This document shows, piece after piece, positions 149 through 28,564 of a stretch of 47,712 bases of DNA. Source of the DNA: an uncultured Gammaproteobacteria bacterium (GTDB taxonomy: Bacteria > Patescibacteriota > Patescibacteriia > Magasanikbacterales > UBA922); the NCBI GenBank assembly GCA_964418775.1, contig CAYQNA010000006.1, forward strand, positions 1-47,712. The letters are read 5' to 3'. The notes beneath the pieces were generated by a model. The model was not told where the DNA came from. It did no database searches and worked only from the letters and a program-made list of their open reading frames with translations. Position 1 is the first letter of the stretch. Each line of letters starts with the position of its first letter. The position numbers were made by a program, and so were the translations under genes.

Positions 149-550
149 TTAGGGTTTGGTGGAGGTTGGAATCCGACCTGGACCAAGTGGGTTGTAACCG
201 TTTAATAACTCATTACCATCCCAAAATGTATCGCCATCGCTGTCTGCTTTTTTAGGGTCAGTTTTGTACTGTTCAATTTCGGCTTTGTCCGAAAGGCCAT
301 CACCATCAGTGTCGTACTCGGCCGGATTAAGGCCTTGGGCCTTTTCCTCTGCATCCAGAATACCATCGCTGTCTGCATCATTTGGGCGACCTTCGGCCAG
401 AGGTTCGTTGCTAACCTCGCCAGTATTTGTGCCCGCATTGCCTGTGTTATCGGCACAGCAGCCGGTAAAATACTTTTGGTACGCCCACCACCCGGCTCCC
501 CCAACGAGAGCCAGGGCTACCACTGTGATGAGAATTTTTTTAACAGACAT
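149..550 (-). CDS. Small membrane-anchored protein with three thrombospondin type-3-like (DxDxDG) calcium-binding repeats
   Basis: ORF track 149..562. The ATG at 550 (MSVKKILITVVALALVGGAGWWAY, one N-terminal TM helix) is preferred over 562. Repeats are DADSDGILDAEE, DTDGDGLSDKAE and DSDGDTFWDGNE. It starts 13 nt after the giant gene's stop. Confidence 0.7.
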   Translation of the reverse strand: MSVKKILITVVALALVGGAGWWAYQKYFTGCCADNTGNAGTNTGEVSNEPLAEGRPNDADSDGILDAEEKAQGLNPAEYDTDGDGLSDKAEIEQYKTDPKKADSDGDTFWDGNELLNGYNPLGPGRIPTSTKP

Positions 551-562
551 AGTATACCACAA

Positions 563-3500
563 TTAGTTTGTAACTTCACATGGTGCTACGCCCGGCATAT
601 TAGCCTTGACGCGACACAGGTCAGTTTCAATGGAACCATTGCCATTGCCCACTGGTGCAATCTTGTATTGACCATTGCCTTGATACACAAAGTTAAACAC
701 GTGCCAGTATGGTGCAAGCGGATTTGCACTACTACCGCCTGCGCCTTTGATTGTGAACGCAAACTTAGGATTTTGATTGTCGTATGGAGGAAGTGGCATC
801 GGTTTGTAGACCGAATACAACGAAGATTGACCGTCGTGGTAATTGTAAACCTCGACAGTGATGTTGCGAGTCGCGGCGTTCGCAATTGTTTGTTGCAAGC
901 CTTTTACATAGAAGGCCACAGCTTTGTGTGAATTTGAACTACCAAGTTGAGCGGTGTTAATAGTCATAGCCTGAACAAATGTCTTATCAAGACCCGTGGC
1001 TTGGTGCATGTACACACCCGAAACTGGATTACACGAACTCTTGCCCATGCCAGTTGGCCACCAATATGGTGCACCACTAATTGTCGTTGTGTTCATAGCA
1101 TTGCACCACACATTGTTGCCATTTTGGTTGTACGAATCCAGGTAGAAGTTGTTTGTGGCCGTGTTAGCGTTATACACACCACCAGCAAACGAGAGGCCGG
1201 CTTTTTGTTCAGCTTCGGTCCAGCGGATAACGACACGGTATGTGTTTGGCGGCACAGCTGGCGAGTAGATAAGCTGAGTATCAACCTGACCAACTTGGCC
1301 AGACACTGGGAAGCTAAACACATCGCCCATTTCTGGATGGTTGGTTAAGTCTGTTTCCAGGCTACCGTCCCCTGCCCAATTTCCAAATGGCGAGGTGGCA
1401 TTCTTGAGACCGCGGTGGTTAAAGAACAAATTGTAATCTGCAGTACACTGTGGATTTGTTTCTAAACCATTAATAAGGTCCGCGCGTTCGAGATTGTCAT
1501 ACCACAGACTCTTGTACAATAACGGTGTTTTGCCACCTTCCACCGTAAAGGTGGCAGGACCAGTCGACACCCGGACAAAGTCATGTATCTTGCTATACCC
1601 AAGGTACTTATACTTCTGACTACCGACGCTAGCAAAGGTTGATACCATGAACCCCTCTTTATCGTAGTTGTCTTTAGTAAATGGCCATGAAGCATCTGGA
1701 CCAACCATAGGGTTAACCACAGAAATACGTGGTACTGGTTTGCCTTCAAATTTGCCACAACTAACGCAACTGTCCGTAAGTACCCGACAGTCAGTGCTAC
1801 ACTGGTACGCACCACGCTGAGTAGACTCACAACTTTTTGTTCGTAAATCAACTGTACCATTTAGAGATGCAAATGGAACCTTAGCCACGCCACCGACAGT
1901 CTCACAGACCTCTGGTGAACCTTCATCGATTTTACTATTGCCGCAGAAATTTGCTGTGTCAACAGTGAGCACATTCTTACAATCGTTCGAGCAGTATTGG
2001 CACGAAACGCCGTAGCCTGGAGTACATGGCTTGCCGTTAGCTGAACCCAAATCACAGGCCTCACCAACGTCTTTTTTGCTATTACCACATTGGCCGACTG
2101 GCGCACTCGATGACTCACTCGAAATTGCACCGTCACAACGCACCCGTAGGCCTGTAAACAGACTGCCCAGTGCACTTTTTTGTTCAGCAAAATGCTGTGC
2201 CATTGTTTTGGAATCTTGACTGCCCGTGCACGAACTAATCATCGTTCCATTTTTAGACTCAACGTCGATCCTTAGACAATTGGATTCATCGAAAACAGCC
2301 CCAGGAATCTTGACTTTCATGGCTCTACAAATATCATCGGGAATTGCGGATGTGCCTACACACGAAGCATTTACAGGTTGACTGTTCTCCATTACAAACA
2401 CATCAACATATGGAGTTTCCTTCGTAGCACCAGGTTTCACAGCCGTGCCAGCCACGGTTTTTGGTTTACCTAAGGCACACATTTTCGCATCTTCTCGCTG
2501 GCATAATGAACTGCAGTTGTCATCATCGGCTGTATTACCATCATCACACTGCTCACCACTCTCTGTCTGTACTAATTTATCACCGCAAAAACCACCAGTC
2601 GCTTTGCAATCGTAAGCACACGAAAAATCTTTGTTAAGATTGTATGATGTACCAATTAAACCTGGTTTAGCAACACAGGAACCCAAATCAGTCGGTGCAT
2701 ATACCACCGCATCGCTTAAATTTGTCCCCAAATCCCATAATTGTGAACTTTGTGGCGCAACACAGTCGCTGTTTGTTTCGCACAGCAAGGTGCTATCTTT
2801 ACTGCAGTACTTGTTGGCGGCCACAATTCTTAGTACATCAGGATTTCCCTTCAGAACAAGGAAATTATTGATATTACTTATCGATGAATCGGTTCCGTAC
2901 TTAAAACGATATTTACTACCATCGAATGACGCGGCTACATGGACATCAGGGACTTTTTCGCAATACTCGGCAGGTTTTTCGAGAGTGCCATTGCCGCAAG
3001 CAATTGCGCTGTAACCAGAGCATTGCTTATTACAGTGTCCGTCTTGGCCATTAACACTGCCTTCATCACACTTTTCACCACCCTCAACCTTGCCATTGCC
3101 ACATTGGCCAGCCGCGACACAAGCAGAGTCAGTCCACTGGCACGACGCACTGCAGGTACGAGTTTTGGTCTCATTTGGTGAGCAACTCACGACGACGCTT
3201 GTGCCTGGCGGGTCACATTGTTCGCCTGGACCAACTGCGCCATCGCCACACTTGGCGCTAAACGGACTGACTTTGGCGTTATTTACGCATTGCTGCCATG
3301 GTGACGAACTGAATTTACTTACATCAATGAATTGGTTCGTGGCCGTATCACTGGTGTTAAAGAATTCGAGCGGAGCATGGAACAAATATTTCCCAGTACT
3401 GCTTACATATTCATACTCATACACACGCGAGACTTTTGGACACGAGAATTCATTGGTGGTGGCATTCCAGCAGGTTTGTCCGTCGGTCGAATCACAACCA

Positions 3501-6500
3501 ACCCAATTGTTAATTGGATCAACTGGCAAACCGCCTACCAAGCCACCCAGCGTACCCCACGATGGCCAGCGGCTCGAAGTGTAGCCAGGGATAAATGTAC
3601 CACTCTTAAGGTCGGCTTTGAAGTTTAAAACTTTATCAACTGTGGCATAGTAAGCGTCTAAGCTGTCCTGAGCCAACTGTACGTCGTGCAAACGTTGCCA
3701 ATCACGGAAGAATTTGGTTTTGGCATTTGAACAAATACCATTCGTCCCACTCATGGCCTGACCAGTGGCGGTAACACACTGCAAGTCAGTTGTACATGGA
3801 ACGCTTGTGATCTTGTTAACATCGGCCGAACGGACACTCAAACCAGCCTTGTCACTAAGACAATACCCGTAGTCCGTTAAGTTAGTATTAAAGCGGAGTG
3901 AAGCCAGTAATTTCTCGAAGACGGTACGCGAAGCAACCTGCGGATTAGCATTGATACTGAACAAATAAATGTTCTGGTAAACATTGGCGCCGGTGTAATT
4001 AAGTGCGCTAATGTAATAATTAGTGCCATCACTCAAGGCTTCATAGCCTGACACTGTCACTGGCTTCATGCTGCCCAATGATTGGAATTTTTCCTGATAC
4101 CATTGTGTCAAACTCTTCACTGCGCCATTAGCATCGGCATCGTTACGGAAGACCTGAATACCAATTACATCGTCATTCTGGTTATTGAAGAACAGGTATT
4201 TTTTGAGTGTATCCAGCGGTACCGGAGGAGTACTTGTGGCTGTGTAGACACTTGGGGCGTTGAAGTATGGCAAGTCATCGGTATCAACACCAGTCTTGCC
4301 AGCATCCGCACAATACATCATGGCAAAATTAAAGTCTTTGTCGCGGAATGGATTACTGCCTGCGGCTGGCCATGGGCGTTCACAGAAGAACGCAACCAAC
4401 TCAAATGGCGCACCAAATACTTGGCCCTGTTGGTTGTTGGTCTCAGACAAATCACGTGTGACCGAAGCCTGAGCCACGGCAGTGATCTGACCCTGAACAT
4501 CTTTGGAAGAAATTGAGTTATCCTGAGTAGTTACATCGGGAATATCAAAGACTGGGGTGCCAATTGGTTTCCATGACCACACCCAATCGTAGGCTGGCGT
4601 TGGCACAATTTGTTGATTGTTTGGAGTACGGCCAATAGCGATAAAGGCGGTGCTTGTGTTTGGTCGCGAGAATGTGTGGCTAGTCGGGAGCACGGCCACT
4701 TCGGACAAACGACAGAGTTCTGCGCCAGTGCGGAAGAACCAAATATCATCAGGAGTAGCCGGGTGGCTGTCTGGTGAACCAACCGAAACACCCGTACTGT
4801 CGGCCACACCGTTTTTACCACCACGAACCCATACACCATAAGTAGCATTAGCGTCGAGCGCCTTGTCAATTGCAAGCGAAACTGTGCTGGTGGCATTTGC
4901 ACCCGCACCAGCATATGCCGTGGTTGGGCTCAGTGCCACACCAGCCGTGCACCATAGGGAGAAACCACTAATTGTATTCTTGTAGTCAGTTGCCACGGCC
5001 CCATCACGGCCAAACAAATTGTGGAAGAATGACTTAATATTTTTCCACAGGCCTTCCCAGAAACCAACTGGAGGAGTATCACCGGCCGAAGTCGCCACAA
5101 AACGCTGCATGTCACTAGTCACATTTAATGTACCTTGTGGACAAGTTGTCGTGTCATTGGTGTAACCACGCACCAACACCACATTGTCCTTCAGACTGTC
5201 TTGACGAATGCGGCGTGGGAATACAGCTTCGATATAAGTATTGCGGCAAGCTGGCTCAGAGTTGGCAAGGCCTGTACCGTCTAATGGGTACTCGCTGGAA
5301 CGCTTGGCACGCAATGCACAGCAGCTACCACTATTCACGCCATATTCATTGCTCTCTGCCGAACCATTTTGTGGACAATCGTTAAACATGCCACTCACTG
5401 GGGCCAGGAATTCCTGGTAACCACATTGCAAACGATAATCGCCCACACCTTTGACTGTTGTAGTCACTAACAATTTTGCCTCAACATCAGTTTCCTGGAA
5501 TGTAGAACTAGCGGACACAGTCCCCTGCCCAACCGCTTCCACAATCTGTGTTGGACCAGCTGCCAAACCTGTGCCATTGGTTACATTTTCGCAACCCTGG
5601 AACTCACCCGTGCCAACCTTGCCGTCACCACACAAAGATTTGGCGCTATATGCTGGCGAAGAGCCGGCCAATGTACAACTACTCGTACACCCCTCTTGAG
5701 TCTTTGGGTCACATTGCTGCACTGGCGTACCACAAGTGTTCTGCCACAAGCACGTATTTGGGTTACAGGTCTTGCTGTCTGCGCCATTCAAACCCGGCTC
5801 ACACATTTCACCATTTTCAATTACATTATTGCCGCAAACTGCGATACTGTTCAAACAAGTAGCCTTGGTCTCGGCACTATCATTGGTGTGAGCTGCACAC
5901 CATGTAGCTGCCAGACTTGTGCCAGCACGCAAACACTGCGAAGTACAGCCGGCGTCGTTCTTAATATCACACGTTTCACCCTTGGTTACTTGGCCATCAC
6001 CACAGTATGATTGACCAGGTTTACTGCTATCAAATGCAGCAATTGGTGCAGAGCCAGTGTGGCCCAAGGTTTTACGTTTAGCCTCGTTATACACGCAGTT
6101 TAAGGCACATTGCGCCTTGCTGCCTTCATCAGCAATATCGCAATCTTCACCTGTGTCAATCTTGGCGTTGCCACACAAGGCCTGGTCTTTTTTGTTTGTA
6201 GTTGAACCAGTTGGCAAGCATGTCAAACTGCAGAATGGTTTAACCCCATAGCCAGTGGTTACATTTGAAACCGAAGCAACTTGCGTATCCAAAGTTTTCC
6301 ATTCATAGCCATAGGCCCATTTGCTGAGTGGTTGACCAGTTTGGCTGCAGGCATTTGGACTGCTGTATGGTTGAGCCGTATAAATTGTGCGCTGACCAAC
6401 AGCGGTCGCGGTAAATGGTTGCGGTGTGACGCGTACACTACCTGGTGCACACGGAGCTGGATTATTTTGCGTACGGAAAGTCCAGGTATACTCAGCCAAA

Positions 6501-9500
6501 CTTTTGCCTAATTTTGGCGGTTGAAGTGCATCCAACGCCTTGATACCACCACCAAGCGTAACTTTGTAATAGGTGTTTGGTTTAAGCAAACGACCCTGAC
6601 GTAACATTAACTCAAGGTGTGATGGAGTCGAAACATCGGTATCAACCGCAAACCAATCAGTAATTGTCACTGCGCTGCTGTCGTTGCAGGCGCCATCGGC
6701 ACTGGCCACACATTCTTTTACAATCCAGGCATTGGTAGCACCAAATGTACTTGTAGCCATTTGACGGTTAAATGTGGCCCACAAATTTGTATTTACGCAC
6801 GACTCAGCGCACGATGGACCCGCTTCTACAACGGCTGGGTCAAGCAAATTAATAAACAGGCTACTTGTGGCAACATAATTAGCCTCGGCATTTAAGCCTA
6901 AATAATCACGTACCTGTGTATCCGACATTGCCCCTGCTTTTATGGCAAATGTATTCCACACGTGTTGTACGTCTTTCTGGGCATCAGTGGTAATCTTCAA
7001 AAAATCAAGTGACTGAGGGAAAACCATATCCTTGGTCGCAGCCACAGAACCATCGGCGCGGTACCAAACTATCGTTTTGCCATCATAAGTCAAAACCGAA
7101 CGTTGTTCGCCAGTAACCGAAGGCACGTGCATTCGACTACACACGTTATCCCCAATCGTATCACCACTAAGCAAGCCTAAACACAGGCCAAATGTTTCGG
7201 CCGAAGAACCAGCCGTGTAATAAAATGCGTACGCATTTTTTTTGCGCAATAAGTTTTTAATCAAAGCATCCGGTTTACCGAGTTTGGCATCGACTATGCG
7301 GTAATTTAATTCTAAAGTAAATGGCTGATTGAAATTTAACAACGGCAATTGTGTGGTAGCAAGACTGACGCCAGTGCTGCCAACAACAGAGTAATCTTTT
7401 TTCGCGTTAAATGCGGCCCAGATATCGATAAAACCATTATTAGCGCCGGCCTTATTTGATTGTGATGTAGCGCTAATAATCGCCTTGTCTGGCACGGTTT
7501 GCTCTTTGGCAATTACTTTAGCGCGACTATCTGTGTACGTTAAACCATACTCAACTCCAGGAGCCATGATGACACCGGCTTTAGCCGTAGGTTCAGCCGC
7601 CCATTTCCAACCCATCCCATCCGCCGACATTACACTACACTCCTGGTCAGTTTTGCCCCACAAGTAGTAATACAATGGGTGTGTTGGGGCCATTGGGTCA
7701 CCGTTGGCTTCAAATGGGAAACTTGGGCTTTGGAGCATGCCCAAATAATTGACTGTATTAGTGATTGGTAAAATGTTGGCACCCGATAATTTACAAGTAT
7801 TATCACTGGTCTTAAAGTCAAAACAATATGCTGTGCCATCCCCACACGGTCGAGTTTTCTGCAATGGAAAACGTTGGGCCTTAGTTTCATTCAAGACCTG
7901 TTTATATTGCAGTGACTGGATCTTGTCACTGAGTTGTACACGGTACCAGGTGTTGGCCTGCATCAGACCTTGACCCGAGGTACGGATAATGAGTACAGCA
8001 CTGTCCAATTGATTTTGTAAACCAAGAACCAAATCTGTATCTTCCGTGGCCTTAGAGCAGTCTGGATTACCGTTGCTAGCCTGCGCACATTTCAGCACTT
8101 TAACACTGGTTGGGCTAATCGTGCTAGCATCCATTGGCGATGTAAACTTAACTGCAATACTGGCATTCGTACACGCCGAACGACCACGAGTAGTTTTTTC
8201 CCATGGAGTTGGCGATGGAAAATCGATTGCCGCACCCGGACTATTCCAGTTTACTTCGTTGCACTGTTCGGCGACACGTGGTAGCTCTGGAATTAGGCCA
8301 GTAGTAAAGCGCCACACATACCCTGCCTCACGCGTTTCGCCCGAACACTGCATGTTTGATGGCTTGAAAACGCCAGCATCTGGACCAACTGTACAGCACT
8401 GGTAACCTGTTATGCCTGGAGATTGTCGACAATCGTTAACTGTATACGTAACACCATTACTAAACGCACTAGTTTTTGAACGAACTTTAATTGGACCGCT
8501 GGTCATAGTCTGGCCCGAACCAGTCACTGGAATCAACGTATTAATTTCGCCATCATTACTGCTCTTAATTACTGAGGTACCGTTAAGTGTGTGCACATCA
8601 GAGTGCAGCCAAGTGTTTAGGTCAGTTGCACTAGAATTTTTTTGCCAAAAATACACTACTGGTGTGTCGGAAAAATTTACCCCCACTAGACGAAGTCCCG
8701 TACTCTCTTTGCCAAGTGGAGCTGGGCCCTGAGCCGGATTTATCGCGCAAATACTTGGTAATGGTGCACCATTCACAATCTGGAGACGAGCCTGACCATC
8801 GGTGCGCTGTTGGTCACCATTGCGGAGCAAAACAAAGTAATCACCAGCTGGTGTGCCATCAGGAATTTCGGCAATTACTTGGTTTGGATTCCAGGTTGTG
8901 CCACAGGCGGCTGGGAATGTGCTAACATTCAAACTACGACACGAAGGGTCAGAGCCCTGAGTAATACAGGTCTGAACTTTTTCTGCACTCGAAGCAATAA
9001 ACACTGTACCCTGAGTACTAAAACCCGAACCTTTGATCGTAATGTAACTGCGTGGCGTGACCGAAGCTGGGTCAATCGCACTAATCACTGGATTCTGTTG
9101 GCCATCAGTTGCTGACTGAACTGTAAACGGTACTGCGTTGCTGGTCTTACCGTCCACAGTCACACTCACCGGTACAACACCAGGTTGCAAATTCAAAGGC
9201 ACACGAGTGTTAATGCTTACATCAATCCAATTTGTGCCCTGAGCCGAAGCTGGACCAAACGCGATCGTTCCATTGCTACCCAAATTTGTACCACCAATTG
9301 TAACTGGTGTAGTCACTGGGGCTTTGCGTGCGCCTTTAATTACTTGAATTGAATTACTACCGACGGTAATTGTCGCATTATCCGTTACACTCACGCCACA
9401 TAACGCTGGGCGAGTTACATTGCTCTTGCGGAACAAACCATCACCACCCGGCTTAGGACCATACTCGTCATCTGAACGGTCAGATTGCGGCGCACTACCA

Positions 9501-11149
9501 GCTGCACCAGTAGTTAAACGAATTGCGTTAGTAGCTGCAATTCCATCTGGTACTTTAATAACCGCCCAGGTAGGACTCCAGGACAAAACACCACCGGTAC
9601 AGGCCACAATCCCAGCCTCTTTCCAAGCATTATTAACCAAAAATTCGACTTTACCCGGCACTGTACCAAAACCAACACCCGAAACAGTAATCCAACTCCC
9701 CTCAGCCCCATCCATTGGGTCAACGGCACGGATCTGAGGTGCAGCCGAACATTTATTATCAATACACTTGTTACCTGGCGCGCACTGGTTATCGGCCGTA
9801 CAAGAACCACCCGGGCCCACGCCACAACTACCGCCAGCGTCCACACTAGTTTCATCGCCATCTTGCACCCCATTATTACATGACGCTGCATACACGCGGA
9901 ACGTCAAAGTCGCAGTAGTCTTGTTGGTGGCAATATCAGTACCCGTGAATGTCGCACGATATTGTTTAAGCGCAGAAAATTTCGTGGCATCGATTGCGGT
10001 TTTGTACGTGGCCACAAAATCAGGCGATGAACCGACGCGTTGTGCTGGCGCCTGATAAGTTTCGGAAATCACCTGGTTACTACCAACCTCAGCAATCGCA
10101 ATTTTCACCAAACCAGTACCACCATATGGCGGGGTTTGGCCGCGATCGCGCACAGTTACGTTAAATGTGGCTGTTTGACCAATATAAATTGGCAGATCAG
10201 TACCGCCGGCACCATTTAAAGTTACCGATTCAAGGCGCGGCGCAGCCTCGTCATAAAAAGCACGGTCAACGCTAAAGTCAGCTGTCAATGGATATGTAAT
10301 ATTGCCGGCACGATAATTTGCTTCGAGCGCACCATTGTTAGTGTCTTTAATGTCTGGCGAAACAGTGATGGTATAATCACCCGGCTCAATTGTACCAGGT
10401 GGTAACTCTGGTTGAATATGCAATTCAAGGACGCGACCGTTTTCAACCAATTCGTTACGGGATTCTACCACGGCACCACCTTTTTTGTTCAAACGGACTG
10501 CTTGTGCAATGTTTGTGTTACTCGCAAGCGAATGACTGAATAGCACCCGAATGCGCGGCGCATTCATACCCGTTTTGTCCGAAGCATCAATCGTACTTGG
10601 GGTAATACTTTTTACGTAAAAAGCCGCGTCAACACAGGCTGAGTATGTTGGGTTAAGTGAACAAAAATTCGAACACTGACTAGGGTTATAATTTGGCGAA
10701 CTTGGATCACAGGCACTGCCCGGCACTGGACCGCCACTACTCAAGTCAACGGTACCCGAGCCAGTGGCTTCGGATAATTTCTTGAGCACAAATGTTGTAA
10801 TCCCCCATGATGAGAGGATAATTACCAGACCAATTACACCGTTTACCAAAATTTTGCGGGCAGTCGCCACTTTATCCTCGTTTCCACCCGCAGTCATGTA
10901 CACAAAACCACCGTACAGCACAATGCCAAGCGCAATTACCCCCAAAACACTGAGCCCAACCTGGATGAACTTAGCCACCGTTACGCGCAAATCGCTATTG
11001 CCTAGGGCAATTTCGCTATTAACCGGATTCAAACCAAACGTATCCGTGCCAGTGGCCGCAAAACTAATTGTTGGCGCCAGAATTAAAGCCAAGGCAGCCA
11101 AACTAGCACAAACAACGAGCGACTTTGCCAAAAAACGGTGAAAACGCAT
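563..11149 (-). CDS. Giant (~3,528 aa) secreted/membrane-anchored adhesin-like protein: signal peptide, VirB2/TrbC-like pilin module, Ig-like, IPT/TIG and Cys-rich repeat domains
   Basis: Uninterrupted 10.6-kb ORF (track 563..11164, which begins at a TTG). The ATG at 11149 gives MRFHRFLAKSLVVCASLAALALILAPTISFA, a typical signal peptide. Domain motifs are listed in the sub-features below. Confidence 0.9.
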   Translation of the reverse strand: MRFHRFLAKSLVVCASLAALALILAPTISFAATGTDTFGLNPVNSEIALGNSDLRVTVAKFIQVGLSVLGVIALGIVLYGGFVYMTAGGNEDKVATARKILVNGVIGLVIILSSWGITTFVLKKLSEATGSGTVDLSSGGPVPGSACDPSSPNYNPSQCSNFCSLNPTYSACVDAAFYVKSITPSTIDASDKTGMNAPRIRVLFSHSLASNTNIAQAVRLNKKGGAVVESRNELVENGRVLELHIQPELPPGTIEPGDYTITVSPDIKDTNNGALEANYRAGNITYPLTADFSVDRAFYDEAAPRLESVTLNGAGGTDLPIYIGQTATFNVTVRDRGQTPPYGGTGLVKIAIAEVGSNQVISETYQAPAQRVGSSPDFVATYKTAIDATKFSALKQYRATFTGTDIATNKTTATLTFRVYAASCNNGVQDGDETSVDAGGSCGVGPGGSCTADNQCAPGNKCIDNKCSAAPQIRAVDPMDGAEGSWITVSGVGFGTVPGKVEFLVNNAWKEAGIVACTGGVLSWSPTWAVIKVPDGIAATNAIRLTTGAAGSAPQSDRSDDEYGPKPGGDGLFRKSNVTRPALCGVSVTDNATITVGSNSIQVIKGARKAPVTTPVTIGGTNLGSNGTIAFGPASAQGTNWIDVSINTRVPLNLQPGVVPVSVTVDGKTSNAVPFTVQSATDGQQNPVISAIDPASVTPRSYITIKGSGFSTQGTVFIASSAEKVQTCITQGSDPSCRSLNVSTFPAACGTTWNPNQVIAEIPDGTPAGDYFVLLRNGDQQRTDGQARLQIVNGAPLPSICAINPAQGPAPLGKESTGLRLVGVNFSDTPVVYFWQKNSSATDLNTWLHSDVHTLNGTSVIKSSNDGEINTLIPVTGSGQTMTSGPIKVRSKTSAFSNGVTYTVNDCRQSPGITGYQCCTVGPDAGVFKPSNMQCSGETREAGYVWRFTTGLIPELPRVAEQCNEVNWNSPGAAIDFPSPTPWEKTTRGRSACTNASIAVKFTSPMDASTISPTSVKVLKCAQASNGNPDCSKATEDTDLVLGLQNQLDSAVLIIRTSGQGLMQANTWYRVQLSDKIQSLQYKQVLNETKAQRFPLQKTRPCGDGTAYCFDFKTSDNTCKLSGANILPITNTVNYLGMLQSPSFPFEANGDPMAPTHPLYYYLWGKTDQECSVMSADGMGWKWAAEPTAKAGVIMAPGVEYGLTYTDSRAKVIAKEQTVPDKAIISATSQSNKAGANNGFIDIWAAFNAKKDYSVVGSTGVSLATTQLPLLNFNQPFTLELNYRIVDAKLGKPDALIKNLLRKKNAYAFYYTAGSSAETFGLCLGLLSGDTIGDNVCSRMHVPSVTGEQRSVLTYDGKTIVWYRADGSVAATKDMVFPQSLDFLKITTDAQKDVQHVWNTFAIKAGAMSDTQVRDYLGLNAEANYVATSSLFINLLDPAVVEAGPSCAESCVNTNLWATFNRQMATSTFGATNAWIVKECVASADGACNDSSAVTITDWFAVDTDVSTPSHLELMLRQGRLLKPNTYYKVTLGGGIKALDALQPPKLGKSLAEYTWTFRTQNNPAPCAPGSVRVTPQPFTATAVGQRTIYTAQPYSSPNACSQTGQPLSKWAYGYEWKTLDTQVASVSNVTTGYGVKPFCSLTCLPTGSTTNKKDQALCGNAKIDTGEDCDIADEGSKAQCALNCVYNEAKRKTLGHTGSAPIAAFDSSKPGQSYCGDGQVTKGETCDIKNDAGCTSQCLRAGTSLAATWCAAHTNDSAETKATCLNSIAVCGNNVIENGEMCEPGLNGADSKTCNPNTCLWQNTCGTPVQQCDPKTQEGCTSSCTLAGSSPAYSAKSLCGDGKVGTGEFQGCENVTNGTGLAAGPTQIVEAVGQGTVSASSTFQETDVEAKLLVTTTVKGVGDYRLQCGYQEFLAPVSGMFNDCPQNGSAESNEYGVNSGSCCALRAKRSSEYPLDGTGLANSEPACRNTYIEAVFPRRIRQDSLKDNVVLVRGYTNDTTTCPQGTLNVTSDMQRFVATSAGDTPPVGFWEGLWKNIKSFFHNLFGRDGAVATDYKNTISGFSLWCTAGVALSPTTAYAGAGANATSTVSLAIDKALDANATYGVWVRGGKNGVADSTGVSVGSPDSHPATPDDIWFFRTGAELCRLSEVAVLPTSHTFSRPNTSTAFIAIGRTPNNQQIVPTPAYDWVWSWKPIGTPVFDIPDVTTQDNSISSKDVQGQITAVAQASVTRDLSETNNQQGQVFGAPFELVAFFCERPWPAAGSNPFRDKDFNFAMMYCADAGKTGVDTDDLPYFNAPSVYTATSTPPVPLDTLKKYLFFNNQNDDVIGIQVFRNDADANGAVKSLTQWYQEKFQSLGSMKPVTVSGYEALSDGTNYYISALNYTGANVYQNIYLFSINANPQVASRTVFEKLLASLRFNTNLTDYGYCLSDKAGLSVRSADVNKITSVPCTTDLQCVTATGQAMSGTNGICSNAKTKFFRDWQRLHDVQLAQDSLDAYYATVDKVLNFKADLKSGTFIPGYTSSRWPSWGTLGGLVGGLPVDPINNWVGCDSTDGQTCWNATTNEFSCPKVSRVYEYEYVSSTGKYLFHAPLEFFNTSDTATNQFIDVSKFSSSPWQQCVNNAKVSPFSAKCGDGAVGPGEQCDPPGTSVVVSCSPNETKTRTCSASCQWTDSACVAAGQCGNGKVEGGEKCDEGSVNGQDGHCNKQCSGYSAIACGNGTLEKPAEYCEKVPDVHVAASFDGSKYRFKYGTDSSISNINNFLVLKGNPDVLRIVAANKYCSKDSTLLCETNSDCVAPQSSQLWDLGTNLSDAVVYAPTDLGSCVAKPGLIGTSYNLNKDFSCAYDCKATGGFCGDKLVQTESGEQCDDGNTADDDNCSSLCQREDAKMCALGKPKTVAGTAVKPGATKETPYVDVFVMENSQPVNASCVGTSAIPDDICRAMKVKIPGAVFDESNCLRIDVESKNGTMISSCTGSQDSKTMAQHFAEQKSALGSLFTGLRVRCDGAISSESSSAPVGQCGNSKKDVGEACDLGSANGKPCTPGYGVSCQYCSNDCKNVLTVDTANFCGNSKIDEGSPEVCETVGGVAKVPFASLNGTVDLRTKSCESTQRGAYQCSTDCRVLTDSCVSCGKFEGKPVPRISVVNPMVGPDASWPFTKDNYDKEGFMVSTFASVGSQKYKYLGYSKIHDFVRVSTGPATFTVEGGKTPLLYKSLWYDNLERADLINGLETNPQCTADYNLFFNHRGLKNATSPFGNWAGDGSLETDLTNHPEMGDVFSFPVSGQVGQVDTQLIYSPAVPPNTYRVVIRWTEAEQKAGLSFAGGVYNANTATNNFYLDSYNQNGNNVWCNAMNTTTISGAPYWWPTGMGKSSCNPVSGVYMHQATGLDKTFVQAMTINTAQLGSSNSHKAVAFYVKGLQQTIANAATRNITVEVYNYHDGQSSLYSVYKPMPLPPYDNQNPKFAFTIKGAGGSSANPLAPYWHVFNFVYQGNGQYKIAPVGNGNGSIETDLCRVKANMPGVAPCEVTN
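1900..2089 (-). repeat. Cys-rich repeat cluster D in the giant protein (2 copies)
   Basis: CGNSKKDVGEACD... and CGNSKIDEGSPEVCE. The TGT of the first Cys was mapped to 2089-2087. Confidence 0.7.
2497..2587 (-). repeat. Cys-rich repeat C in the giant protein (1 copy)
   Basis: CGDKLVQTESGEQCDDGNTADDDNCSSLCQ. The first Cys codon is at 2587-2585. This copy is closest to the myxococcal cysteine-rich repeat consensus CGNG..E.GE.CDDGN. Confidence 0.7.
2953..3250 (-). repeat. Cys-rich repeat cluster B in the giant protein (3 copies)
   Basis: CGDGAVGPGEQCD, CGNGKVEGGEKCDEG and CGNGTLEKPAEYCE. Cys codons were mapped at 3250-3248 and 3103-3101. Confidence 0.7.
5575..6175 (-). repeat. Cys-rich repeat cluster A in the giant protein (4 copies within ~200 aa)
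   Basis: CGNAKIDTGEDCD, CGDGQVTKGETCD, CGNNVIENGEMCE and CGDGKVGTGEFQGCE. The first Cys codon is at 6175-6173. Confidence 0.7.
8435..9739 (-). repeat. Array of four IPT/TIG-like Ig-fold domains in the giant protein
   Basis: Four modules begin PQIRAVDPMDGAEGSWITVSGVGFG, PALCGVSVTDNATITVG..GGTNLG, PVISAIDPASVTPRSYITIKGSGFS and PSICAINPAQGP..LRLVGVNFS. This is the P-x-I-x-x-I/V-x-P ... I-x-G-x-G/N-F signature of IPT/TIG domains. Confidence 0.65.
10769..11044 (-). other. VirB2/TrbC-like (T4SS-type) pilin module at the N-terminus of the giant protein
   Basis: Sequence DTFGLNPVNSEIALGNSDLRVTVAKFIQVGLSVLGVIALGIVLYGGFVYMTAGGNEDKVATARKILVNGVIGLVIILSSWGITTFVLKKLSEA. It has two hydrophobic helices flanking a GGNEDKV loop, and 58/93 residues are identical to the module of the neighbouring 714-aa protein (hand count). 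Confidence 0.6.
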
Positions 11150-11168
11150 ACAAGCAGTAAGCAATTAC

Positions 11169-13313
11169 TTATTTGGGGGTTTGGGGACTAACACCTGGTG
11201 TCCGCAACTGACCAAGGCAACTTTCCACGGTATCCTGCGCCACAGGCACAGCTCCATTGGCAGTTACACATGCAGTATCGCGATCAGCGGACAATTGTAA
11301 TGGGGCGCAATTACTCGTACTAATAATCGTACCATCCGCATCGTACCCAATCGTACACACTGGTGACGGGCCGGCGTTTTTCGTTGGACTAACTGGACCA
11401 AACCCTGGATACAGACAATTTTGATTATCACTCATGGCTGAGCTGGAAACTGAGGTAAAGTAATACAAATCCAAGCCATTGGCACCGAGTTCTCGTGTAC
11501 CTTTGGTTAGAAGCTTTGTGCCACCATTCAAGCTCGAAATTGCCGCACTACTGAAACCGATTTTATCCATTGGTTGACCATCAGCGCCCTTACTACCCGC
11601 AGGATATTCTTCGAGTTTAATACCGCCGCCAGCCAAACTAGCCAGCCACATCTTGCGACTAAACTCAGTCTGAATACCCACATCACGCGCCACACCTTCG
11701 TTATCAATACCCGGTGTTACTTGGCGAATGTAGGGTGCCTCGCGATCCACAAAATTGCGAACCACAAAATCCATCCAGAAGTTATCTGGATTACGTTCTT
11801 CGTCACCAACGGTTTTAAGGTTGTTTGGTTGTGTTGGTTGGTGGCGCCATTTTGCACCGAGTTGTGATTCTAATTTACCATCACCCTTGCCTTCACTGCT
11901 ACTATCGAGTGCATTGCCAGCCATGTCCATGACACCGCTGAATGGTCGGGCAATGAAATTGCTCTGAGCATTATCGAGGAGTGCGGCAGTGCGCACCAAA
12001 GCTGTAAGTGGACGAGCGCACGAAGTATCACCTTCTGGGCAGTCAACCGGCAAACAATACATTGGCTGACCACATGTATTTACGCCACAAGGAATGTCTG
12101 GTACAAATTCAATTGTGCGGTAGCCGTTTGTAATTTTCCACTGTCCGCTAACTCTAATATCGTCAAAAATAACGTGTGTAAATAAACTAGACTTATTTAA
12201 CACACCCTGAACAACCGTTGGGTCAACTGCTTCAGTAAATGAAATCTGAATAATTTTATTGCGTGGGATTGTTTGACCAGGCAATGGCGAGGTCAGACTT
12301 AAATCAACCGATGGTGGCGTGTAGTCAATCGTGGTATTGGTTTCAAATTCCCACACATAGCGCTTGTAATACAGCGCGTCAAATGCACCCTTGCCATCAG
12401 CTTTTTTAATGCCTGACAAAAGTTCAACGGTGTGCCACACATTAGCGGCGCTGTCACCCAAATTTTCTACTGGTTTAAATACGAACAAACGTGCAGTGCC
12501 ATCGGCTTCATAATTAGCCATGGCCGCGGCAGCATACAGTGGAACTGGGTTAGCCGCTTTATTGGCGCTTTGAAAAATGCGAACGGACGAAGTCGCCAAC
12601 TGGTCGCACTCACTAGCCCAGTCAAGTGCTTTATCACCATTCAAATCAACACAATCACCATAATACGGCTTGGCATTGGCTTGCGAACAGGCAGCAACGG
12701 TACCACTACCATCAGCGGCCCAGCAGGTACCGTTGGTATTTTTGATTAAACTGCTTGGGTCAATCGGTTCGGCAAATGTCACGGCAATCTTGGTGTTGCG
12801 TGGTACATCGCGCTGTTTAACGGTTGGATAATGGTCGCGCACGACATCACCAAGCGCACCCGTGCCCGAAAAAGTATTAAAATCTGGCGCTCCCCCACCC
12901 AGTTGTTCATTGCCTGGGTTAATTGCTTCTTGCAACTTGCCTAATACAAATTGCACAATGCCAAATGAAGCCAAAATAATAGTGAGCCCAATGACTGAAT
13001 TTGTTAAAATCTTTTTGCCTTCGGCAACTTTGTCCTCGTTCCCCTGCGAGGTCATGATTGTAAAACCAGCGTATAAAATGAGCCCGAGCGAAATTACACC
13101 AAGCAATCCGAGCACAGCCCGGATAACTTTGGCCACAATGATACGAATATCATCGTTTGCCAAGGCAATAGTATTATCAATTGGGTTTAAGCCAAAGGTG
13201 TCGGCCTGAGCACCGGCTTGTTGAACCCCAAATAAAAACACAAAAACTGTCGCGGCCAAGAATGTGGCAGCCACAGTTCTGTGTAAACGATGAGACCGAA
13301 TCCAAGGAAGCAT
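11169..13313 (-). CDS. 714-aa secreted/membrane-anchored protein: signal peptide, VirB2/TrbC-like pilin module and SbsA/Big_5-like Ig domains (paralogous N-terminus to the giant protein)
   Basis: ATG at 13313. Signal peptide MLPWIRSHRLHRTVAATFLAATVFVFLFGVQQAGAQA. Repeated motifs resemble SbsA-type Ig domains (PRNTKIAVTFAEPIDPSSL, PRNKIIQISFTEAVDPTVV, VARDVGIQTEFSRKMW). Confidence 0.85.
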   Translation of the reverse strand: MLPWIRSHRLHRTVAATFLAATVFVFLFGVQQAGAQADTFGLNPIDNTIALANDDIRIIVAKVIRAVLGLLGVISLGLILYAGFTIMTSQGNEDKVAEGKKILTNSVIGLTIILASFGIVQFVLGKLQEAINPGNEQLGGGAPDFNTFSGTGALGDVVRDHYPTVKQRDVPRNTKIAVTFAEPIDPSSLIKNTNGTCWAADGSGTVAACSQANAKPYYGDCVDLNGDKALDWASECDQLATSSVRIFQSANKAANPVPLYAAAAMANYEADGTARLFVFKPVENLGDSAANVWHTVELLSGIKKADGKGAFDALYYKRYVWEFETNTTIDYTPPSVDLSLTSPLPGQTIPRNKIIQISFTEAVDPTVVQGVLNKSSLFTHVIFDDIRVSGQWKITNGYRTIEFVPDIPCGVNTCGQPMYCLPVDCPEGDTSCARPLTALVRTAALLDNAQSNFIARPFSGVMDMAGNALDSSSEGKGDGKLESQLGAKWRHQPTQPNNLKTVGDEERNPDNFWMDFVVRNFVDREAPYIRQVTPGIDNEGVARDVGIQTEFSRKMWLASLAGGGIKLEEYPAGSKGADGQPMDKIGFSSAAISSLNGGTKLLTKGTRELGANGLDLYYFTSVSSSAMSDNQNCLYPGFGPVSPTKNAGPSPVCTIGYDADGTIISTSNCAPLQLSADRDTACVTANGAVPVAQDTVESCLGQLRTPGVSPQTPK
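12924..13208 (-). other. VirB2/TrbC-like pilin module at the N-terminus of the 714-aa protein
   Basis: Sequence DTFGLNPIDNTIALANDDIRIIVAKVIRAVLGLLGVISLGLILYAGFTIMTSQGNEDKVAEGKKILTNSVIGLTIILASFGIVQFVLGKLQEA. Confidence 0.6.
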
Positions 13314-13341: not shown

Positions 13342-13779
13342 CTAAGTAAGTCGTTTGCTTAGCAAATCGCGCACCTGCGCGCCATCGGCCCGCCCTTTGA
13401 CTTTGGCCATAACCTGTCCGGTTAATTGACCAAGGTTTGGGTTTGGACCAGTCTGACTTAACACCTCATCCACAATTGCCGATAGTTCGGCTTCACTTAA
13501 AGCCTGGGGCAAATATGCTTCCAGTACTTTAATTTCCTGTTCGGTTTTACTACTCAAATCCGTGCGCCCGGCCCGGACAAAGTCCTGGTTAGCATCACGA
13601 AGTTGCTTGACCTGACGCCGAATGATTTGTTCACCATCGGCATCAGTCATTTCACGGCCCAGTGTGATGCGTTCGTTTTTGAGCGCAGCTAGTACCAATT
13701 GCAGGGTACCAAGCGTGGCTTCGTCGTGGTTACGACGAGCAGCTTGCTGGTCAGCCGTTAATTTTTCAAGCAAGGTCAT
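13342..13779 (-). CDS. yqeY: GatB/YqeY domain protein
   Basis: 145 aa. It is collinear with the YqeY family (LLAALKNERI, AGRTDL, EIKVLEAYLP, KVKGRADG). Confidence 0.8.
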   Translation of the reverse strand: MTLLEKLTADQQAARRNHDEATLGTLQLVLAALKNERITLGREMTDADGEQIIRRQVKQLRDANQDFVRAGRTDLSSKTEQEIKVLEAYLPQALSEAELSAIVDEVLSQTGPNPNLGQLTGQVMAKVKGRADGAQVRDLLSKRLT

Positions 13780-13783
13780 AGGC

Positions 13784-14035
13784 TTAGCGGCGAGTGCGGC
13801 TTAGCTTTACTTTTTCTTCTGCAGACAAACGACCGGTTTTCTTGCGGTGGTCGAACTGCGCTCTCATCTTAAGACGAGAGACCGTAGAAGTACGGCGGCG
13901 GTTCTTGCTCGGCTTGGAGGCAAAGACTTGGCCTTTGCGAACTTCCAAAATCCGGCCTGATTTCTGCCAATTTTGTTTGACACGGCGCAAAAACGATTCA
14001 AAAGATTCGTTGCGCTTACGTTTAATTTCTGACAC
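13784..14035 (-). CDS. rpsU: 30S ribosomal protein S21
   Basis: 83 aa, basic, with S21-like NESFESFLRRVKQNWQKSGRILEVRK. GTG start preceded by GGGAGGTGA 6 nt upstream. Confidence 0.8.
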   Translation of the reverse strand: MSEIKRKRNESFESFLRRVKQNWQKSGRILEVRKGQVFASKPSKNRRRTSTVSRLKMRAQFDHRKKTGRLSAEEKVKLSRTRR

Positions 14036-14107
14036 AAAATTTCACCTCCCGAATAGTTTTATAAGTAATCGTCAGCACCCTATTCGAGGCAATGCTTACG
14101 TGGCTGG

Positions 14108-14136
14108 AGTATACACACTTTTTGGCCAAACGTCAA
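14108..14136 (-). promoter_or_regulatory. Putative sigma-70-type promoter upstream of rpsU (TTGACG-N17-TATACT)
   Basis: On the minus strand the -35 is at 14136-14131 and the -10 at 14113-14108, with an exactly 17-nt spacer. It lies just downstream of the hisS stop. Confidence 0.5.
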
Positions 14137-14146
14137 ATAATTTTGG

Positions 14147-15580
14147 CTAGGTAGCGGATTCATTGTCCAAAATGCGGCGGAGGGCAGTTTTGATTTTTTT
14201 CTGGTCCACAATTTCCTGGATACCCGACTCCATGTTGCGGATCAAAACCGTGCCGTCCTGGACCTCTTTTTGGCCCAAAATCAAGGTGTGAGTAGCGCCG
14301 TATTTATTGGCCAGTTCAAGCTGAGCTTTGAGCGAAGATTTGGCCAGGTTATGAAAAACCGTAATCCCCTCACGACGCATTTCTTCTACCAAGAAGAGGG
14401 CGCGGCGGCGGGCCTGTTCGCCAAGCTGAGCAAAGAAAACACTATTGCCTTTTTTAGCACCTTCCACCACTGGCTTGCGCTCAACGGCAAGCATAAGACG
14501 TTCAGCACCCAACGCAAACCCAGCAGCTGGAGTTGGTTGACCACCAAGCTGCTCAATAAGCAAATCATAGCGACCTCCGCCACCCAGCGCCATTTGTGCA
14601 GTTTCAGTAGCAATATTTTCTTCGTACAATTCAAATACCGTGTGAGTATAATAATCCAAACCACGCACGAGTGTTGGCGTGAGCACGTATGGAATACTCA
14701 TTTCATCGAGGTATTCGAGCACACTCATGAAGAATGATTTGGATTCTTCGGACAACCAGTCAACAATTTGTGGAGCCTCGGCAAGCACAGTAACACAACC
14801 TTCGACTTTACAATCAAGCACGCGCATTGGGTTTTTTACCAAACGCTTTTTGCAATCCTCACACAAATACGCGCGTTTGGTGCGGAGGTAGCCGACCAAT
14901 TCAACCAAATAGTTTTCGCGATCAGCCGGTGTGCCCAAACTGTTCACACGAACAACAACATCAAGGCCGAGGTCACGGCAGAAGTTATACGCCACAGCAA
15001 TTAATTCCGCATCAATCACGGGCGCTTTTTCACCAAGTGTTTCAAAATCAAACTGGTGGAACTGGCGCTGGCGACCAGCCTGTGGACGATCATAACGGAA
15101 AAGCGGGCCAAAGTTCCACAACTTTACTGGCTGTGGCAACTGTTGCAAACCATGCATGATATAGGCACGGGCCACTGACGCAGTCATTTCGGGACGGAGC
15201 GCCAACTTACCACCGTCGCGGTCTTCGAACACATACATTTCTTTATCAACCACATCGGTCCCGCGACCAACAGCGCGCACAAAGAGTGACGAAGCTTCGA
15301 CAATCGGCGTACCAAAATAATCAAAGCCGTACGCATCGGACAGATTCTGCGCAATGCGCTGAGCCTGCTGCCACAACTTGCTTTGTGGTGGCAAAATATC
15401 TTTCATGCCGCGCACAAGCATCAAACTGCCCGCGGCTTTTTTGTTTTCAGCCTCGTCTTTTTTTTCTTTCTTTTCCTTAACCTCTTTTGGTGCTGGTGTT
15501 GATTTAGCAACCGGTTTTTTAACTGGTTTAGGGGCCGGTTTTGCGGCTGGTTTTTTCTTTACGTCTTTTTTAGTAGCCAT
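14147..15580 (-). CDS. hisS: Histidine--tRNA ligase with a ~55-aa Lys/Ala/Pro-rich N-terminal extension
   Basis: Class II aaRS/HisRS motifs are present (LVRGMKDILP, LRPEMTASVARA, GPLFRYDRPQAGRQRQFHQFDFE, GGGGRYD), followed by an anticodon-binding domain. The ATG at 15580 (MATKKDVKKKPAAKP...) is preferred to the track start at 15658. Confidence 0.9.
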   Translation of the reverse strand: MATKKDVKKKPAAKPAPKPVKKPVAKSTPAPKEVKEKKEKKDEAENKKAAGSLMLVRGMKDILPPQSKLWQQAQRIAQNLSDAYGFDYFGTPIVEASSLFVRAVGRGTDVVDKEMYVFEDRDGGKLALRPEMTASVARAYIMHGLQQLPQPVKLWNFGPLFRYDRPQAGRQRQFHQFDFETLGEKAPVIDAELIAVAYNFCRDLGLDVVVRVNSLGTPADRENYLVELVGYLRTKRAYLCEDCKKRLVKNPMRVLDCKVEGCVTVLAEAPQIVDWLSEESKSFFMSVLEYLDEMSIPYVLTPTLVRGLDYYTHTVFELYEENIATETAQMALGGGGRYDLLIEQLGGQPTPAAGFALGAERLMLAVERKPVVEGAKKGNSVFFAQLGEQARRRALFLVEEMRREGITVFHNLAKSSLKAQLELANKYGATHTLILGQKEVQDGTVLIRNMESGIQEIVDQKKIKTALRRILDNESAT

Positions 15581-15594
15581 ATAAGGATGAGAAA

Positions 15595-16197
15595 TTAGAG
15601 GTTGTAGCCTGGGGGTGTAAAAGTGCCAACACGTGCAAATGGCCACCCACGCAACCACACACGGCCTACGATTGCGGTTTCATTAATTGGACCAAAGCGG
15701 CGCGAGTCATAACTCGCATCGCGATTGTCCCCCATTACAAAATATTCGTTTTCATTAAGGGTGTACGTAACTGAACCCGGCGTTTCTTCGACCAAATATT
15801 TTTCTTCTAATACTTTGCCGTCCAGATGCTCGTCGTTGTACACGATAACTTTGTTGCCGTCAACCTTTACACGCTCGCCTGGCAAGGCAATCACGCGCTT
15901 CAGGTAAAAATCATTATTAATCGGGGAATGGAACACCACGACCTCGCCACGTTCTGGGGCTCGGAAGCGGTAGGACAATTCATCAATAATTAAATAATCA
16001 TGTTCTTCAAAATTTGGTTCCATTGACTGGCCTTTTACGTAAAAAGGCTTAAACAAAAAATAACGCACGAGCGCAATCGTAATACCAGCCAAAAAAGCGA
16101 TTTTAATCGCTTCCAGGAAAAAACTACCCACGCGGCTAACCCAGCTTTGCTCCACGACAACCTCTTCTGGCGGCACCTGATCTTCAGGGGTATTCAT
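15595..16197 (-). CDS. lepB: Signal peptidase I
   Basis: S26 motifs GQSMEPNF, YLKRVIALPGE and GDNRDASYDSR. The ATG at 16197 is preferred to the TTG at 16212 because the predicted -10 ends at 16224. Confidence 0.85.
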   Translation of the reverse strand: MNTPEDQVPPEEVVVEQSWVSRVGSFFLEAIKIAFLAGITIALVRYFLFKPFYVKGQSMEPNFEEHDYLIIDELSYRFRAPERGEVVVFHSPINNDFYLKRVIALPGERVKVDGNKVIVYNDEHLDGKVLEEKYLVEETPGSVTYTLNENEYFVMGDNRDASYDSRRFGPINETAIVGRVWLRGWPFARVGTFTPPGYNL

Positions 16198-16223
16198 AAC
16201 AAAAAAAGTCAATAACTAAGGCC

Positions 16224-27455: not shown

Positions 27456-28541
27456 TTAATTACTTGCGGCGGCAAAACCCATAAACAGGGCGCCTGTGTC
27501 TGGATGGACACGGAGTGTGGTTGGAACTTGTGTGGTTGGAAGCTTACGCGAAATCCAGCTTTGGCCACCATCAATGCTGCGGTAGAACACCGAACGATTG
27601 TTGGCTGTAGTGGTCAAATACAGTTCTTTGTTGTTCTTTGGGTTAACGGCGAACGCGTAAATCGACACACTGCCTGGGGCCGGAACAAGGCTGATCGCTT
27701 CCCAATCCTGACCAGCGTTGCGCGAAACAAGTACGCCGTACTTGGAAATCCAGTATACATTTTCGGCAGCCCCTGGGTAGACATACAAGCGGCGGTATTC
27801 TTTAGCGCCCGTAAAATCTTTCATGTTGTCCGAAACATTTTCCCAGGTAACAGCGTTGTCGCGTGAACGCATGAGGCCGTCTTTGCGAGTAGCCAAATAG
27901 ACGAGACCTTCTTTTTGTGGGTCAAAGACCATCCGCTGGAGCTGCTCACCAAAACGATGGGTCACGCGCCAGCTAATCCCACTGTCCTCACTCATCAGGA
28001 GTTCGCCGCTGTCCTGGCCAATATATACACGATTAGGGGCGGCTGGGTCAAGGGCAATGGTACGCATGACTTCCCCACTACCAGTTACGCGACGCATTTC
28101 AGACCAGGTACGAGTACAGTCTTCAGACTTAAACAATTGGCTGCCATTGGTGGCGTAAATTGTACAACGGTCCTTCGGGTGGACAGCCAAGGAGTAAATA
28201 AAGCCCGTGTTAAGTGGGGCACCAGCTTGGTCCCAAGTTGAGCCATCGTTATTAGTAAAGAAAATACCCTTGCCACGCGAGGCCCAGTACATGGTCTTTG
28301 GGTCAGTTGGGTCTTCCACCACACTGAATACACCCACGTCGGTTAATTGACGGTCAACGTTTGGCTGGAGTAAAAGTGACGAGACTTTCCACGAGTCACC
28401 CTTATCAGCCGAGGTATAAATACCCATTGGACCAGTTGTGGCTGCATCCTTACTGCCACTTAACGAAACACAGCTGGCACCTGTGAGCACCAAAGCTGTG
28501 GCCAAAGCACCTTGCGCTACCCAGCGAGAAATTGTTTTCAT
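27456..28541 (-). CDS. Secreted (possibly lipoprotein) BNR/Asp-box repeat beta-propeller protein (Ycf48/sialidase-like fold)
   Basis: Seven Asp-box-like motifs are present: SADKGDSW, TNNDGSTW, SEDCTRTW, SEDSGISW, SRDNAVTW, SRNAGQDW and SIDGGQSW. The ATG at 28541 gives the signal peptide MKTISRWVAQGALATALVLTGASC. Confidence 0.75.
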   Translation of the reverse strand: MKTISRWVAQGALATALVLTGASCVSLSGSKDAATTGPMGIYTSADKGDSWKVSSLLLQPNVDRQLTDVGVFSVVEDPTDPKTMYWASRGKGIFFTNNDGSTWDQAGAPLNTGFIYSLAVHPKDRCTIYATNGSQLFKSEDCTRTWSEMRRVTGSGEVMRTIALDPAAPNRVYIGQDSGELLMSEDSGISWRVTHRFGEQLQRMVFDPQKEGLVYLATRKDGLMRSRDNAVTWENVSDNMKDFTGAKEYRRLYVYPGAAENVYWISKYGVLVSRNAGQDWEAISLVPAPGSVSIYAFAVNPKNNKELYLTTTANNRSVFYRSIDGGQSWISRKLPTTQVPTTLRVHPDTGALFMGFAAASN

Positions 28542-28564
28542 ACAAAAAATAAAAGATGGGTCTA

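Follow-up and report, generated by a model that had tools for sequence, protein, structure and literature searches.

We analysed a window of 47,712 nucleotides, the whole of the stretch from contig CAYQNA010000006.1 presented above, which GTDB places in the Magasanikbacterales of the Patescibacteriota. On its minus strand lie two adjacent genes, here called A and B, in which a signal peptide and a VirB2-like pilin module are followed by a large C-terminal ectodomain. The genes and their parts are listed here, with residues of B numbered from its ATG start.

11169..13313, minus strand: gene A, a modular pilin of 714 aa with an ATG start, made up of signal peptide, VirB2-like hairpin, linker and Ig-like ectodomain (open reading frame (ORF), PF18895 and Big_5 matches, 211 homologues, AlphaFold2 (AF2) model)
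13203..13313, minus strand: A signal peptide, residues 1-37 (hydropathy; predicted signal peptidase I site AQA|DTFGL)
12921..13202, minus strand: A pilin module, residues 38-131, with the DTFGL segment, helix 1, the loop MTSQGNEDKV and helix 2 (PF18895 at residues 59-123)
11172..12884, minus strand: A ectodomain, residues 144-714, all-beta and Ig-like, after a flexible linker of residues 132-143
563..11164, minus strand: gene B, a giant modular pilin with 3,533 aa if the TTG at 11164 is the start, or 3,528 aa if it is the ATG at 11149
11057-11149, minus strand: B signal peptide, immediately before the pilin module region
10766..11044, minus strand: B pilin module, residues 36-128 (PF18895; hydropathy; our own module hidden Markov model (HMM), E=2e-40)
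3653..10732, minus strand: B ectodomain core, residues ~140-2499, with Ig-like Big_5 and TIG domains and Cys-rich CGxGxxxxGExCD repeats at 1659 and 1716
566..3652, minus strand: B C-terminal separable module, residues ~2500-3528, Cys-rich, with repeats at 2634, 2683, 2855 and 3021

The public record holds the 3,528-aa form of B with the ATG start (563-11149). Depending on whether B begins at the TTG or at the ATG, the gap to A is 4 nt or 19 nt, and both genes are found where an earlier reading of this DNA, made from its letters alone and here called the sequence-only reading, had placed two ORFs 4-19 nt apart. That reading had also counted by hand 58 identical residues over the 93 ungapped positions of the DTFGLNP...EA stretch, with divergence thereafter. 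The count is exact, compared with 7.8±2.6 identities (maximum 20) in 20,000 shuffles, and BLASTP confines the similarity of A and B to the N-terminal ~140 aa (68/140 identical, E=8e-34), the remainder being unrelated.

The pair is not the isolated oddity that it was first taken for, but a two-gene cassette that keeps the same housekeeping position throughout a class. Homologues of full-length A with the same architecture (PF18895 and Big_5) number 211, and nearly all have 650-770 aa. They come mostly from Candidatus Magasanikbacteria, and their annotations go no further than hypothetical, pilin or Ig-like domain-containing protein. Among GTDB species representatives, a scan gave at least 79 loci in Magasanik-, Uhr- and Falkowbacteria and unclassified Patescibacteria, to which we then applied our own module HMM. 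These loci hold 73 complete A genes, of which 68 are followed by 600 nt or more of sequence. In 67 of these 68, a second module-bearing ORF comes directly after A, with a median gap of 5 nt and many 4-nt overlaps. Complete B genes in these loci encode 1,668-3,459 aa; a further 26 run into the locus end at lengths of at least 3,000 aa. The protein after the A orthologue has 4,325 aa in Magasanikbacteria GW2011_GWA2_56_11, 3,683 aa in OZ246405.1 (a complete 1.23-Mb genome) and 4,281 aa in a JGI contig. Each of these three giants has T4SS_pilin, Big_5 and TIG, and two have Laminin_G_3 or VWA. The upstream genes common to the three loci are SMC ... LepB-HisRS-S21-YqeY, and the order lepB-hisS-rpsU-yqeY-A-B is conserved across the clade, with its upstream part at 13342-16212 (minus strand) in the window. 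A and B thus form an old two-gene cassette that is inherited vertically and keeps its chromosomal position.

Public records of cassette loci from metagenome-assembled genomes (L013, L020-L022, L024 and others) are often titled 'uncultured Gammaproteobacteria'. These appear to be taxonomic mislabels, as do one record titled 'Candidatus Udaeobacter' and one protein match titled 'Kapabacteria'.

Given this conservation, the 10.6-kb ORF, or the fusion itself, can hardly be an assembly chimera or a frameshift, a check that the sequence-only reading had itself named. We found no support for such an artefact beyond B being a singleton cluster at 90% identity. The same junction occurs in an independent assembly (Logan SRR12487046), which has an identical A gene and identical B residues 1-550. 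Residues 1-1,195 of B match 483 cluster representatives at E<=1e-30 (exhaustive phmmer), and the top 150 of these relatives are mostly 3,000-5,300 aa long, with most aligned from their own N-terminus. Orthologues also align to within 4 residues of the B C-terminus. Together with the pairing of A and B across the related loci, these data rule out an artefact, and we give it practically no credence.

Two neighbours of the pair are relevant to the cassette.

15595..16212, minus strand: signal peptidase I (LepB, S26), four genes upstream of A (Pfam; upstream in 73 related loci)
149..550, minus strand: small protein with a single N-terminal transmembrane (TM) segment and three bacterial TSP3 Ca-binding repeats (PF18884), abutting the B stop codon

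LepB is the enzyme expected to remove the leaders of A and B, and a functional link may exist, or the arrangement may be synteny only. Proteins with a TM segment and TSP3 motifs likewise come after B in three related loci (L013, L054 and L059), so the small protein at 149-550 may be a third member of the cassette. Scans for promoters and terminators gave background levels.

Hydropathy shows the same arrangement at the N-terminus of both proteins. A hydrophobic signal-peptide region is followed by two hydrophobic helices (residues 55-89 and 101-128 in A, 54-89 and 94-123 in B) with the loop MT(S/A)xGNEDKV...K between them, and there is nothing hydrophobic afterwards, hence no further TM segment. 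This agrees with the signal peptide and two-helix hairpin described for both in the sequence-only reading. Residues A35, Q36 and D38, at the predicted cleavage site of A, are nearly invariant across 60 A orthologues, and AF2 places the helices of the A module at residues 56-87 and 93-131. A VirB2-type layout (cleavable leader, two helices, short charged loop and both termini outside) fits both proteins, with the cleavage and the orientation as predicted features.

Three other types of surface protein were considered and rejected. The LPXTG motif is absent from A and B, neither has a C-terminal TM segment, and their tails are hydrophilic, which excludes a sortase-anchored adhesin. The leaders are Sec-type with an AXA site and no Pfam family of type IV pilus (T4P) pilins is matched, which excludes a T4P pilin. 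An adhesin of the type I secretion system (T1SS) or RTX type was excluded as well, there being no RTX or T1SS matches in either protein.

Judged by its profile matches, the module belongs to PF18895 (T4SS_pilin, where T4SS stands for type IV secretion system), the family that the sequence-only reading had named. The scores are 29.4 bits for A, 33.0 bits for B and 39.9 bits for the module of B taken by itself (gathering cut-off 26.6), and all 60 of the A orthologues match the family. The small stand-alone relatives that had been expected also exist. When the module by itself was used as the query, 51 proteins of 111-171 aa were found. All belong to PF18895, with identities of up to 68%, and some of these "stand-alone" matches are B genes cut at contig ends (e.g., P0019, a fragment of L071). 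P0001 (68% identical), P0016 and P0020 are complete small pilins in tandem arrays. The signature positions of the free pilins (LG..D.R, LYGGF..MTAGGNE.KV and IGL.II) are all kept in the fused modules. Typical VirB2-type conjugative pilins have about 70-150 aa and consist of the pilin only. At 714 and 3,528 aa, A and B are far larger, and their ectodomains are C-terminal to the module.

Tandem arrays of up to ~11 PF18895 genes adjoin an SBP_bac_1 gene and S6-SSB-S18 (L006 6219-14121; L088 8347-11642). Several array members have the pilin module at the C-terminus of proteins of 177-373 aa, after N-terminal extensions, which shows that modular pilins occur in both polarities.

The ectodomains are arrays of Ig-like, TIG and Cys-rich domains by Pfam and Foldseek, in keeping with the adhesin-like character first ascribed to them. 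The AF2 model of A (pLDDT 86.3, pTM 0.78) has the hairpin, a disordered linker at 132-143 and an all-beta ectodomain. Foldseek matches the whole model to tandem Ig-like or cadherin-like structures with low TM-scores (LdtMt2 BIg domains, protocadherin EC1-4 and CopC), and gives no enzymatic or lectin assignment. Beyond PF18895, Pfam finds Big_5 in A, and TIG together with three copies of Big_5 in B. B also has 123 cysteines and six CGxGxxxxGExCD repeats (DUF4215/myxo_disulf_rpt), with no enzymatic Pfam match and no match to sequences in the Protein Data Bank (PDB).

The B ectodomain itself has two parts. Its core is matched, as far as residue 2497, by the short B orthologues found in L042 and L052. 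In lineages in which B has ~2,250-2,700 aa (L024, L028, L042, L045 and L052), the next gene has its own signal peptide and matches B residues ~2,500-3,524 (BLASTP). This separate downstream protein has 648 aa where the locus end cuts it and up to 1,195 aa elsewhere, and the fission or fusion breakpoint in B lies at about residue 2,497-2,514. Since it is a separate secreted gene in some lineages, the C-terminal ~1,030 aa is a separable module that is able to work non-covalently.

From the gene structure, the PF18895 homology, the class-wide conservation and synteny, the all-beta fold of the A ectodomain and the lack of other anchors, we tentatively propose that A and B are VirB2-like pilins of modular build, which put surface-contact domains on display and co-assemble with small pilins. 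This is the reading that we favour, although we stop short of calling it probable. In this scenario, A and B would be exported by Sec, and signal peptidase I (LepB) would remove the leader, in A at AQA|DTFGL. The ~95-aa module would then form a hairpin in the cytoplasmic membrane, its two ends facing out and the GGNEDKV...K loop facing in. Helix 2 would re-initiate translocation, leaving the 570-aa (A) and ~3,400-aa (B) ectodomains extracellular on a flexible Gly/Pro linker. The hairpin would most likely dock in the assembly of the small free pilins, which may be a T4SS-type pilus or a membrane-proximal oligomer. A and B could serve there as a fixed pair of low-copy subunits, at the tip or sparsely distributed, that present surface-contact domains. 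In a monoderm there would be no outer-membrane channel to exclude such bulky proteins.

A cryo-electron microscopy (cryo-EM) preprint on the T-pilus helps to define what such an assembly could accommodate. Both VirB2 termini point outward, so that a C-terminal fusion is topologically displayable, and the inter-helix loop lines the lumen, where the essential Arg91 binds phospholipid. With the parameters reported (76 Å diameter, 13.4 Å rise and 5 subunits per layer), we computed an outer pilus surface of ~6.4 nm2 per subunit, about one Ig-domain cross-section. A and B could thus be only low-copy or tip subunits, and not major ones.

It is also conceivable that A and B are pro-proteins, in which helix 2 acts as an internal signal and cleavage after ...EA/ATG frees a pilin together with a secreted or wall-associated giant. 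The C-terminus of RP4 TrbC is trimmed by a LepB-like peptidase, a lepB gene is conserved four genes upstream of A, and small residues follow helix 2 (SEA|TG in B). The separate secretion of the C-terminal third of B in some lineages likewise indicates that covalent linkage is not obligatory throughout. However, the residue at -3 is not always a small one (QEA in A), free pilins also end in the ATG motif, which is hence part of the pilin itself, and helix 2 of the AF2 model runs through the putative cleavage site. We consider processing of this kind very unlikely.

A stronger alternative to displayed pilin subunits is that the hairpin was co-opted as a two-helix membrane anchor, possibly a self-oligomerising one, and that A and B are free-standing fibrillar proteins of the envelope or surface, structural or adhesive in role, with no pilus or T4SS involved. 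The cassette is found at a fixed housekeeping neighbourhood and never beside T4SS genes, the proteins are very large, structural search of the module yields only a generic hairpin, and the ordinary rate of the ectodomains is consistent with a core envelope structure. Across loci, ectodomain identity is 30-38%, comparable to that of YqeY (38%). The module behaves differently. Its identity to the window's module is 50-56% across loci, so that it is about as conserved as essential enzymes (58-60% for HisRS, 60-64% for LepB and 52% for SMC), and it keeps the loop signature of the free pilins. This suggests a constraint beyond the needs of a plain membrane anchor. In a distance tree of the modules (neighbour-joining, 94 columns), from which the order of fusion and duplication is not inferable, A, B and free pilins are intermixed, which suggests one shared constraint or partner. 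The hairpin is under pilin-type sequence constraint and not mere selection for hydrophobicity, and docking in the same assembly as the small pilins is the most likely consequence. We therefore regard a role as anchor only as possible, but somewhat improbable.

Several results nevertheless weigh against A and B being pilin subunits of a T4SS-type assembly. The first concern the family relationship. Neither A nor B matches PF04956 (TrbC/VirB2) at E<=0.1. Against NCBIfam NF045849 (Mbov_0395 family pilin-like conjugal transfer), A scores 33.9 and B 29.6 bits, below the cut-off of 40, so on these scores A and B are related to NF045849 proteins but are not equivalogs. The module model (AF2, pLDDT 76.5) is a helical hairpin. 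Foldseek against the PDB matches it to generic hairpins only, at a best E of 0.68, and none of the top 50 is a pilin, a two-helix hairpin being a shape that discriminates little. A search of PDB sequences with the module profile gave no match, and so no link to VirB2 or TraA. PF04956 is matched at E<0.01 by 15 of the 60 A orthologues (best E=7.6e-8) and by 11 of 40 free relatives (best 1.7e-7). Because Foldseek returns only generic hairpins, it is these cross-family HMM matches that support homology to classical VirB2. The VirB2/TrbC likeness proposed in the sequence-only reading thus holds with respect to PF18895 and the PF04956 matches of orthologues, whereas Foldseek gave no significant structural match.

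The second group of results concerns genomic context and rate. As had been noted beforehand, we found no VirB4, VirB6 or VirD4 in the window, and no LPXTG or classical wall anchor; nor does the window hold any other pilin module. In the four related loci whose neighbouring genes are annotated, the cassette has no T4SS genes within 10 kb, and no VirB4 occurs within 10 kb of the close free pilins in 5 of 5 loci (arrays). According to reviews, no T4SS pilus has so far been visualised in any Patescibacterium. The ectodomains are conserved and not hypervariable, which is unusual for host-specific adhesins. Their ordinary rate is easier to reconcile with a conserved target or a structural role than with a fast-evolving adhesin that sets host specificity, and together with the 53 invariant columns in A it would suggest a partner that is conserved and not a host receptor that varies.

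In a published survey that covered 3,035 genomes of Patescibacteria, VirB4 is listed as present in GW2011_GWA2_56_11 and GWC2_37_14, which are both of the cassette-bearing genomes that we cross-referenced with it. Clusters described in the survey are TrsD-VirB4 in GWC2_37_14 and TrsD-VirB4-VirB3 in GWA2_37_8 (Magasanikbacteria, cassette status unchecked), and in both genomes VirB2-type genes lie far from virB4. The survey finds no PrgB-like adhesins in the candidate phyla radiation (CPR), which leaves the niche for a contact function vacant. The survey and the reviews state that Ca. Southlakia has an essential pilin array. In the one Patescibacterium that is genetically tractable, the epibiotic lifestyle requires the T4SS and its pilin arrays. 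A more specific form of the modular-pilin reading is that a monoderm VirB2-like pilus bears the A and B fusions in place of the missing VirB5/PrgB-type adhesins, and couples the T4SS filament to the host cell. We consider this version doubtful. If it were true, A and B would be the first modular pilins in the T4SS pilin superfamily, enabled by a monoderm envelope without an outer-membrane channel.

It is useful to compare A and B with systems already described. The nearest relatives are the small pilins of the same phylum (PF18895; arrays of Ca. Southlakia epibionticum and TM7x), which have the same signal peptide, two helices and LYGGF..MTAGGNE.KV loop. The A and B modules are on average 43-50% identical to free pilins, and up to 68-74%. 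The small pilins differ in having 110-370 aa and in forming tandem arrays that vary (25% mean identity according to the survey), often near virB4, whereas A and B have 570-aa and 3,400-aa C-terminal ectodomains and are single-copy, class-wide orthologous and encoded at a housekeeping locus. The survey and the reviews describe only small pilins.

The classical TrbC/VirB2/TraA pilins (PF04956) of the T-pilus and F-pilus share the hairpin topology, the outward termini and the charged inter-helix loop, but they are small diderm proteins whose genes lie within T4SS operons. We know of no classical conjugative pilin with a large ectodomain. The closest functional analogue of the A/B architecture is found in the modular type IV pilins of Streptococcus sanguinis, namely PilB, which has a vWA module, and PilC, which has a lectin module. 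They follow the same logic, a pilin joined to a bulky adhesive module at its C-terminus, and in this monoderm they are built in as minor subunits. PilB and PilC belong to an unrelated superfamily, the type 4 filaments, which use a class III signal peptide and a prepilin peptidase. A and B, in contrast, have Sec-type leaders and a VirB2-like hairpin, and the B ectodomain is ~10x larger. Giant Ig-repeat adhesins (LPXTG-anchored ones, Apilactobacillus Giant1-5, and T1SS substrates such as SiiE) are likewise multi-kilodalton Ig-like extracellular rods. Unlike these, A and B are without LPXTG, RTX or T1SS features and would be anchored N-terminally through the pilin hairpin. We found no published description of pilin-ectodomain fusions in the searchable literature. 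What is known, then, is the PF18895 pilin module, and what is undescribed is the conserved pair with C-terminal ectodomains.

Other proteins of note are encoded elsewhere in the window. A 713-aa ORF at 35562-37703 (plus strand) has no Pfam family, a soluble N-terminal domain, TM segments at residues ~290-370 and a faint C-terminal NHL/beta-propeller-like match, and is unrelated to the A/B cassette. On the minus strand are a 380-aa Sortilin-Vps10/BNR-repeat envelope protein (27456-28598) and a 684-aa envelope protein with VanW and PG_binding_4 (24373-26427). mreB is flanked by a DUF4012 protein and glycosyltransferases.

To our knowledge, the class that carries this cassette has no cultivated member. 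B accounts for ~1% of a genome of ~1.2 Mb, which implies a strongly selected function. T4SS pilins are usually regarded as small, single-purpose subunits, and A and B depart from that. They provide named candidates for the contact that these cells make with a host.

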